DNA from: a virus | Lineage: Duplodnaviria; Heunggongvirae; Uroviricota; Caudoviricetes | Length of the DNA: 9,540 nucleotides | Reading direction: 5' to 3' (one strand) | Virus record (IMG/VR): IMGVR_UViG_2671180651_000017 | The notes under the pieces: model-generated | What the model was told of the DNA's origin: nothing | What the model saw: the letters and a program-made list of their open reading frames with translations, nothing else | Database searches by the model: none | Position numbers and translations under genes: made by a program | Part shown: one piece after another, positions 2,535-2,588 of the stretch | Layout of the letters: the number at the start of each line of letters is the position of its first letter | How positions within the stretch are numbered: the stretch's first letter is position 1

Positions 2535-2588
2535 GACGGGGGGCGGTGTCCAGGGTGATCGACTTTCCGGCCGGAACACTCCCCCCCC
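2535..2588. other. G7 run, 12-bp palindrome TTCCGGCCGGAA, C8 run: potential long stem or protein-recognition site upstream of the terS-like gene
   Basis: GGGGGGGCGG at 2538-2547 and CCCCCCCC at 2581-2588 flank the palindrome at 2565-2576. Lies between the 53-aa ORF stop (2592) and the terS-like start. Confidence 0.4.

Follow-up and report, generated by a model that had tools for sequence, protein, structure and literature searches.

A probable HK97/HNH-type cos site upstream of the terS gene of a 9.3-kb PICI-type satellite from Escherichia coli

Why do a run of G, a palindrome and a run of C stand close together just upstream of a terS-like gene? The question is raised by positions 2535-2588 of the 9,540-nt stretch of viral DNA analysed here (hereafter the window; IMG/VR record IMGVR_UViG_2671180651_000017). 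A previous sequence-only reading had proposed a nicking or recognition site at this place, with a layout and a G-rich stretch loosely recalling phage lambda, or equally well a structured promoter or attenuator. Our analysis leads us to conclude, with good confidence, that a 9.3-kb PICI-type satellite has its cos site here, and that this site belongs to the HK97/HNH type. The satellite cos is very probably a near letter-for-letter copy of the cos of the prophages that it parasitises, and a functional element of a known kind. The proposed nicking site thus holds for its kind (cos), for its place and for the G run, which falls within the predicted cohesive end, while its lambda-type details do not.

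On the plus strand, the stretch reads GAC GGGGGG CGGTGTCCAGGGTGATCGAC TTTCCGGCCGGAA CACT CCCCCCCC. The G run is real but counts six bases (2538-2543) and not the seven reported, the quoted GGGGGGGCGG being in fact GGGGGGCGG. The palindrome TTCCGGCCGGAA (2565-2576) is perfect over 12 nt, and the C8 run is present and corresponds to a poly-G tract on the gene strand. A 129-nt gap separates a coiled-coil ORF from terS and contains the stretch, which is adjoined by GTAACTTTT (= AAAAGTTAC) repeats, as described earlier. Read on the gene strand, the gap comprises the TGA stop of the upstream ORF, CAT, G8, AGTGTTCCGGCCGGAAAGTCGATCACCCT (29 nt), GGACAC, CGCCCCCCGT and CTCA, followed by TTCGTAGAAAATTTTGCTTTTCA, two copies of AAAAGTTACAC separated by a G, a ribosome-binding site and the terS ATG (Table 1). 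Chance levels were estimated from 1000 dinucleotide-preserving shuffles of the window. The number of 12-nt palindromes is that of the background (2 observed, 2.7 expected per window) and a G or C run of at least eight is seen in 15% of the shuffles; a G run of at least six together with an opposite run, one of the two reaching at least eight, within 60 nt was obtained in 0.2% of them. The 20-mer GGACACCGCCCCCCGTCTCA is found once in the window, versus none in 200 shuffles when up to 3 mismatches are tolerated.

Table 1. Features of the satellite and of its predicted cos region, in coordinates of the window.
Feature	Position	Strand	Remarks
Poly-G tract (G8, gene strand)	2581..2588	-	Starts 3 nt past the stop of the coiled-coil ORF
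29-nt spacer AGTGTTCCGGCCGGAAAGTCGATCACCCT, containing palindrome TTCCGGCCGGAA	2552..2580	-	
cosN-like core GGACAC/CGCCCCCCGT/CTCA	2532..2551	-	Homology to phage cos
Predicted 10-nt 3' cohesive end CGCCCCCCGT	2545..2536 (about +/-2 nt)	-	Contains the G run
Conserved downstream flank, +5 to +27, A/T tract GTAGAAAATTTT	2509..2531	-	Aligns with phage CGCAGAGAAAAAATTCC
Two AAAAGTTACAC boxes 12 nt apart, GTTAC at +33 and +45	2485..2507	-	cosB-like
Six GTTAC/GTAAC boxes in 12-nt phase	2233..2303	-	Inside the linker-coding region of terS
Integrase	9356..8133	-	
AlpA-like regulator	7271..7047	-	
D5/P4-type primase	5426..3678	-	
Several small ORFs		-	
Coiled-coil ORF, 53 aa	2753..2592	-	
terS, 162 aa, Terminase_2	1974..2462	-	Pfam PF03592 1.4e-10; phrog_641 1.5e-43
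53-aa ORF	1962..1801	-	
HK97-fold capsid-protein (MCP-like) homologue, 307 aa	1811..888	-	

All credible genes of the window are carried by the minus strand. A segment with 100% identity to the window is found between clpS and cspD in E. coli O157:H7, O103:H2, O121 and others, and this clpS-cspD interval is the insertion site of the 9.3-kb satellite in STEC strains. The element displays the features of a PICI, namely an integrase, an alpA-like regulator, a primase, a size of ~10 kb, att-like repeats and packaging-interference genes, with neither tail nor lysis genes, and every one of its ORFs is intact. Annotation of the gene content of the window with Pfam and phrog profiles revealed no TerL, HNH, tail or lysis gene; the lack of its own HNH and TerL is expected for a satellite that borrows both, HNH-TerS-TerL being supplied by co-resident prophages. 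A tRNA scan of the window gave no hit, and NCBIfam brought no addition for TerS or the small ORFs. The island carries imperfect direct repeats at its two ends (76-148 and 9374-9446), which lie 9298 nt apart, are 74% identical along 73 nt and have the core AAATTAACTACACCATT in common. They are probably attL and attR, and would fix the cos-to-cos unit at ~9.3 kb, about a sixth of the length of a helper genome.

Downstream of the capsid-like gene, positions 180-880 form a non-coding stretch packed with repeats, including two 88-nt copies 537 nt apart (95% identical), repeats of 41-47 nt and a palindromic unit CCCGATATGGTGATCCCCATATCGGG. The capsid homologue itself (888-1811, minus strand) matches only the C-terminal HK97-fold part of phage protease-MCP fusions (residues 100-300 for Pfam Phage_capsid; positions 386-610 of 626 for phrog_617) and, by analogy, may be a candidate for Ccm-like redirection of capsid size. 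The palindromes GTGTGATATCACAC (7334-7347) and GTGATATCAC (7357-7366) are found in an AT-rich region around the start of a 257-aa ORF (8136..7363), ~60-120 nt before the alpA-like gene, and may be operator sites. On the gene strand, a strong terminator-like hairpin AGCCGGAGCAATCCGGCT (3046-3063) followed by TTTTTTT was placed within an annotated small ORF (3327..3082) and lies ~95 nt upstream of a 64-aa ORF, so that the cos/terS genes may constitute a separate transcription unit.

The assignment to a cos family comes from homology with phages. Positions 2440-2760 (321 nt) were compared by sensitive blastn with 50,697 phage records, and the matches were confined to 2509-2588 of the query. Besides a few short matches in unrelated phages, they correspond, at 73-81% identity, to the unannotated gap between the HNH and terS genes of Stx1a, Stx2a and Stx2c phages, including 1717, 2851, BP-4795 and YYZ-2008. 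Comparison with the cos sites of candidate helper phages, which had been put forward as a check in the sequence-only reading, showed that the 30-nt core CGATC.CCC.GGACACCGCCCCCCGTCTCA (2532-2561) is identical at 28 of 30 positions (93%) to phage 1717, against 53% DNA identity for the adjoining terS and its phage 1717 counterpart. The local alignment score with the phage 1717 cos was 43, versus a maximum of 15 among shuffles. The satellite 10-mer CGCCCCCCGT is identical in 1717, PV728 and 2851, and matches at 9 positions out of 10 in Lys8385Vzw. The satellite copies are at least 95% identical to one another and their conservation within the lineage consequently says little; the high identity of the core to the phage site could partly result from recent recombination with prophages instead of long-term selection.

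The ends of one of these phages have been mapped. The record of Lys8385Vzw, a relative of 1717, is cut exactly at the site, ending with ...CCGGACACCGCCCCCCCT and starting with CTCACGCAGAG..., which gives the junction GGACACCGCCCCCCCT/CTCACGC. [quoted passage not shown] In HK97, the genes are ordered HNH, cos, terS, the 3' overhangs are 10 nt long and the HNH protein gp74 stimulates cos cleavage (PMC9410871, PMC11331095). The end of the HK97 record corresponds in the alignment to CGCCGCCAAA. A 10-nt cos, TGCCCGCCCC, has been described for SfI and SfV, both of which have this gene order as well (PMC3636060). Anchoring on this SfV/SfI 10-mer instead of the PhageTerm call moves the predicted cut by 2 nt, and the cut position is therefore given with an uncertainty of 2 nt on either side. 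The predicted cut falls 74 nt before the terS ATG, with the A/T tract spanning +12 to +19 and the two boxes of the gap following at +33 and +45. HK97 TerS recognises an A-tract-containing site (+15 to +29) just downstream of the cut (PMC11331095). Cleavage, overhang polarity and the exact nick positions in the satellite are predictions from homology.

The 14-mer GGACACCGCCCCCC matched IMG/VR at 121 places, from which we kept the 54 loci where TCTCA follows closely and a run of at least six G stands within the preceding 60 nt. Each of these 54 has its G run (6-13 nt) ending 27-29 nt before GGACAC, with a spacer of 29 nt in 36 loci, 28 nt in 16 and 27 nt in 2. These spacers belong to ~8 unrelated sequence families; the spacing being fixed across unrelated spacers, the poly-G tract and its distance are conserved, and the spacer sequence is not. 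The 3' part of the satellite spacer, CGATCACCCT, belongs to the conserved core. The distance criterion was derived in the present analysis and is not a published one, and a literature search for a poly-G element in cos sites found no description, which is not proof of absence. The G run is also found in the Stx phages, a Hafnia prophage, Salmonella and E. coli satellites and HK97, and varies from 6 to 9 nt among copies of the satellite. Alignment of the Hafnia, Salmonella and E. coli relatives shows the same order throughout: G run, ~35 nt to the 10-mer, core, A/T tract and box. The poly-G tract is possibly a cosQ-like or nuclease docking element. The coiled-coil ORF upstream of it (2592-2753) shares its C-terminal peptide (...EVEGLISLLGE) with a homologue in the Salmonella satellite (L023, ~1058-1094), which likewise stands upstream of cos, where phages have HNH.

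On the other side of the core, the satellite and the Stx phages differ in their repeated boxes. Downstream of the cut, the satellite displays eight GTTAC and no GTTAAC, versus five GTTAAC (+34, +42, +110, +133, +148) and no GTTAC in the Stx phages, and the first satellite box aligns with the first Stx-phage CAGTTAACAT box (+33 vs +34). The AAGTTAC motif occurs nine times in the window for 1.05 expected, with seven of the nine within 2233-2505. The boxes located inside terS (+233, +245, +257, +275, +287 and +299) encode KVT repeats, and over this linker (2233-2303) DNA sites and protein sequence are seemingly co-constrained. Satellite TerS is 45% identical to phage 1717 TerS at the amino acid level (E = 9e-44); between the two, conservation extends over the N-terminal helix-turn-helix region and the C-terminal domain, and the linker is replaced. 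The TerS relatives from Hafnia and Salmonella keep both the KKVT.KVT linker and the internal GTTAC boxes, which Stx-phage TerS does not have. Upstream of terS, a AAAAGTTACAC box also stands in the Hafnia prophage and in the Salmonella and E. coli satellites of the same TerS clade. Since a bona fide Hafnia phage uses GTTAC boxes, the box type tracks the TerS clade and not satellite status. Judging from these sequence comparisons, the GTTAC boxes are probably the binding sites of satellite TerS; an E. coli helper with a GTTAC-type TerS may exist.

The TerS relatives led to three contexts: a Hafnia alvei prophage with an HNH-TerS-TerL-protease/MCP-portal module, a Salmonella satellite with the layout observed here (coiled-coil ORF, cos, terS, small ORF, capsid-like gene) and an E. 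coli satellite with its own HNH. A TerS-based search for related loci in genome contigs gave no confirmed relatives. One related, satellite-like E. coli locus (L018, 5348-7423, GCA_034224985.1) has a 162-aa HNH gene of its own, a cos of the same architecture and numerous GTTAC boxes; it encodes a TerS 62% identical to that of the present satellite and a 281-aa capsid homologue but no TerL, and is intermediate between the present element and cf-PICIs. The 53-aa ORF that follows terS in the window (1801-1962) resembles only the TerS C-terminal domain (phrog_641 positions 89-125): it aligns with TerS residues ~92-140, both sharing an invariant DP...L.AA..L motif, and carries an acidic tail, EEEEDDL. 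By analogy with Ppi, its product could serve as a decoy against helper TerS or TerL.

Several other explanations of the stretch were weighed, starting with a role for the palindrome, which is found only in the present satellite lineage (4 IMG/VR loci and the E. coli copies). The sequence at the same position is ATCCGGCGAAAAAA in the Stx phages and TTCAGGGTAAAA in the HNH-bearing satellite, and is unrelated in the Salmonella satellite. We rejected the palindrome as a conserved part of the site on account of its chance frequency and lack of conservation; in this lineage, it probably fills by accident a spacer for which length counts and sequence does not. It might in addition bind a dimeric satellite protein, such as the product of one of the small upstream ORFs, and thereby modulate the use of the satellite cos. 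Its perfection over 12 nt, its invariance in six aligned satellite copies and its location where helper phages differ in sequence agree with such a role, but palindromes of this length are expected by chance, the Salmonella satellite with the same upstream coiled-coil ORF does not have it, and the satellite copies are too alike for its invariance to be informative; we hold this role to be unlikely. An inert relic would be a cos-like sequence that arrived with a phage-derived terS/capsid module and is unused, the island being immobile or packaged otherwise, for instance by a headful mechanism. The terS/MCP-like module is clearly phage-derived, the element is known from sequence alone and its copies are too similar to reveal selection within the lineage, all of which a relic would accommodate. 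It would hardly account for a core 93% identical to the phage site next to a homologous gene at 53%, nor for an architecture kept in diverged Salmonella and E. coli satellites with intact terS. These two observations make a relic distinctly unlikely, and the helper family is moreover cos-type according to PhageTerm and the ORFs of the satellite are all intact.

The lambda and regulatory readings fared worse. The lambda cos has a 12-nt, 5' overhang. A site of that type, with cosQ-cosN-cosB and gpNu1-type recognition, would agree with the succession of cut site, repeats and terS, and with the 9/12 match between GGGCGGTGTCCA (2541-2552) and the lambda cohesive end GGGCGGCGACCT. This resemblance, noted in the sequence-only reading, is at chance level: such matches with 3 mismatches number 7 per window for 5.4 expected, and the local alignment with lambda cos has a score of 14, reached by 13 of 300 shuffles, with its best segment elsewhere than at cosN. 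The resemblance to lambda cosN was accordingly rejected by both pattern search and alignment. Furthermore, the TerS is of the Terminase_2/phrog_641 type and not of the lambda Nu1 type, neither a gpNu1-type TerS nor an Rpp adaptor was found beside the cosB, and the true homologues of the site adjoin HNH genes and have 3' cohesive ends; we therefore give a lambda-type cos almost no credence. Within the primase gene, GGGCGGCGACCC (4279-4290, minus strand) is an 11/12 match to GGGCGGCGACCT whose flanks are similar in part; it encodes the TGGDP motif of the primase and is probably a coding coincidence (~0.04 expected per window under a uniform model), but lambda-type cos sites are used by other E. 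coli PICIs. As for a structured promoter, attenuator or terminator controlling the expression of terS and the capsid gene, said earlier to fit equally well, the promoter, terminator and Rfam scans lent it no support: 2463-2591 contains neither sigma-70-like sites nor a gene-strand terminator, and an Rfam search of 2200-3100 returned no relevant match. The stretch is indeed intergenic and just upstream of terS, and its G8 and C6 runs can pair in RNA (MFE -43.3 kcal/mol, z = -2.1), but this z-score is weak: an equally good fold was given by 6 of 200 shuffles. The complementarity of the two runs is lost in the Hafnia phage (10-mer CTCGCCTTCT), which keeps the G run and the spacing; the hairpin is thus not the conserved feature, and was rejected as the main function. 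The spacer is conserved in length without sequence conservation or covariation, and homology to a site with mapped virion ends accounts for the conservation directly. Regulation of terS expression is, on this evidence, a very unlikely function of the stretch.

For the HK97/HNH-type cos site, the helpers would be lambdoid prophages that carry an HNH-TerS-TerL module, the Stx phages among them. Among 5426 complete E. coli genomes, 1254 contain, often more than once, the HNH-cos segment found upstream of terS in phage 1717, and 220 contain the satellite-type region. An initial impression that the helper-type cos was scarce, obtained with the short 321-nt query, and the enrichment estimate drawn from it were dropped once the longer phage query had found the 1254 genomes. 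Satellite and HNH-cos region occur together in OkiPb01680 and in strain 7_11_88A; OkiPb01680 harbors a full lysis-HNH-cos-TerS-TerL-MCP module whose core, GGACAC CGCCCCCCCT CTCA, matches the 10-mer at 9 of 10 positions. In the packaging route that we propose, the satellite would replicate into concatemers upon induction, and helper TerL and HNH nuclease would introduce staggered nicks at CGCCCCCCGT, leaving 10-nt 3' cohesive ends. Packaging would proceed from the cut towards terS until the next cos ends the unit, which would bring the poly-G tract, located 35 bp ahead of the cut, close to the end packaged last, where lambda has its cosQ. Satellite TerS, with its helper-like C-terminal domain, would bind the 12-nt-phased GTTAC boxes (GTTAAC in the Stx phages) and direct the nuclease and the motor of the helper to satellite DNA. 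Head size may be altered by the capsid homologue, in the manner of Ccm in SaPIbov5.

The closest known sites are those of the Stx phages (1717, 2851, BP-4795, YYZ-2008 and Lys8385Vzw), which share with the satellite the core and its 10-mer, the poly-G distance, the A/T tract, the position of the first box and a location directly upstream of a homologous Terminase_2 terS. They differ by an HNH gene upstream, where the satellite, devoid of TerL and HNH, has the 53-aa coiled-coil ORF, by GTTAAC boxes where the satellite has GTTAC, mostly inside terS, and by the spacer, which in the satellite includes the palindrome. With HK97 and SfV, the satellite has only the architecture in common: local alignment to their cos is not significant and their TerS belong to other families. 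Among satellites, SaPIbov5 and SaPIbov4 are staphylococcal cos satellites of the HNH-type phages phi12 and phiSLT and encode the capsid homologue Ccm (PMC5052747). Like them, the present element carries the cos of its helper, would depend on HNH-requiring helper packaging and has an HK97-fold capsid homologue beside the packaging region. SaPIbov5, however, retains only a 3' remnant of terS and uses the phage TerS, whereas the present satellite encodes a full TerS homologue with its own box type; the hosts are of different phyla and there is no sequence relationship.

EcCICFT073 has a helper-like cosN (and cosQ) and a different cosB, read by the satellite-encoded DNA-binding protein Rpp (PMC6739421). 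The logic is the same here, as is the backbone (int, alpA, primase); EcCICFT073, however, belongs to the lambda cos family and its Rpp heterodimerises with phage TerS, whereas the present satellite has an HK97-type cos and a complete TerS homologue, and no Rpp was found in it. As in the pac-type SaPIs (TerS-SP and Ppi), a satellite-encoded TerS would redirect the terminase and ORF 1962..1801 could be Ppi-like, but pac SaPIs are packaged by headful, unlike the predicted cos satellite. The cf-PICIs also exploit HNH-type packaging, with a whole packaging/capsid module including their own HNH-TerS-TerL, whereas only terS and one capsid-protein homologue are found here. Known satellite strategies comprise carrying the helper cos (P4, SaPIbov5), encoding a TerS for pac sites (SaPIs), combining Rpp with a divergent cosB (EcCICFT073) and encoding a complete module (cf-PICIs).

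The present satellite cos falls in the helper-cos-carrying class, within the HK97/HNH cos family. Its own full TerS and boxes differing by one base point to a variant that would combine the helper-cos, satellite-TerS and Rpp-type strategies. We tentatively extend this to a joint reading, to which we give somewhat less than even credence: the satellite family would pirate HNH-type cos phages by swapping TerS, as the full-TerS counterpart of Rpp, with GTTAC replacing GTTAAC, the cut site and poly-G kept and ORF 1962..1801 perhaps acting as a Ppi-like decoy, and the poly-G tract would be a functional part of HNH-type cos sites, either a cosQ-like termination signal or a docking signal for HNH/TerL. 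A literature search for such a satellite in O157 strains found no specific description, which is not proof of absence.

Within this cos family, the poly-G tract, the spacing, GGACAC with the 10-mer and the A/T tract are conserved, while the spacer sequence and the TerS boxes are swappable, a division that can guide the mutagenesis of HK97-type cos sites, whose upstream half has been little studied. This work also provides a base-level prediction of the packaged ends for a satellite present in ~220 of 5426 complete E. coli genomes, many of its carriers belonging to STEC serotypes (O157:H7, O26:H11, O111:H8, O103:H2, O121), and names a helper class, the HNH-TerS-TerL lambdoid prophages, found in 23% of E. 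coli genomes. It bears on the possible mobilisation of other DNA by Stx-phage induction, and on a possible interference of satellites with Stx-phage production.
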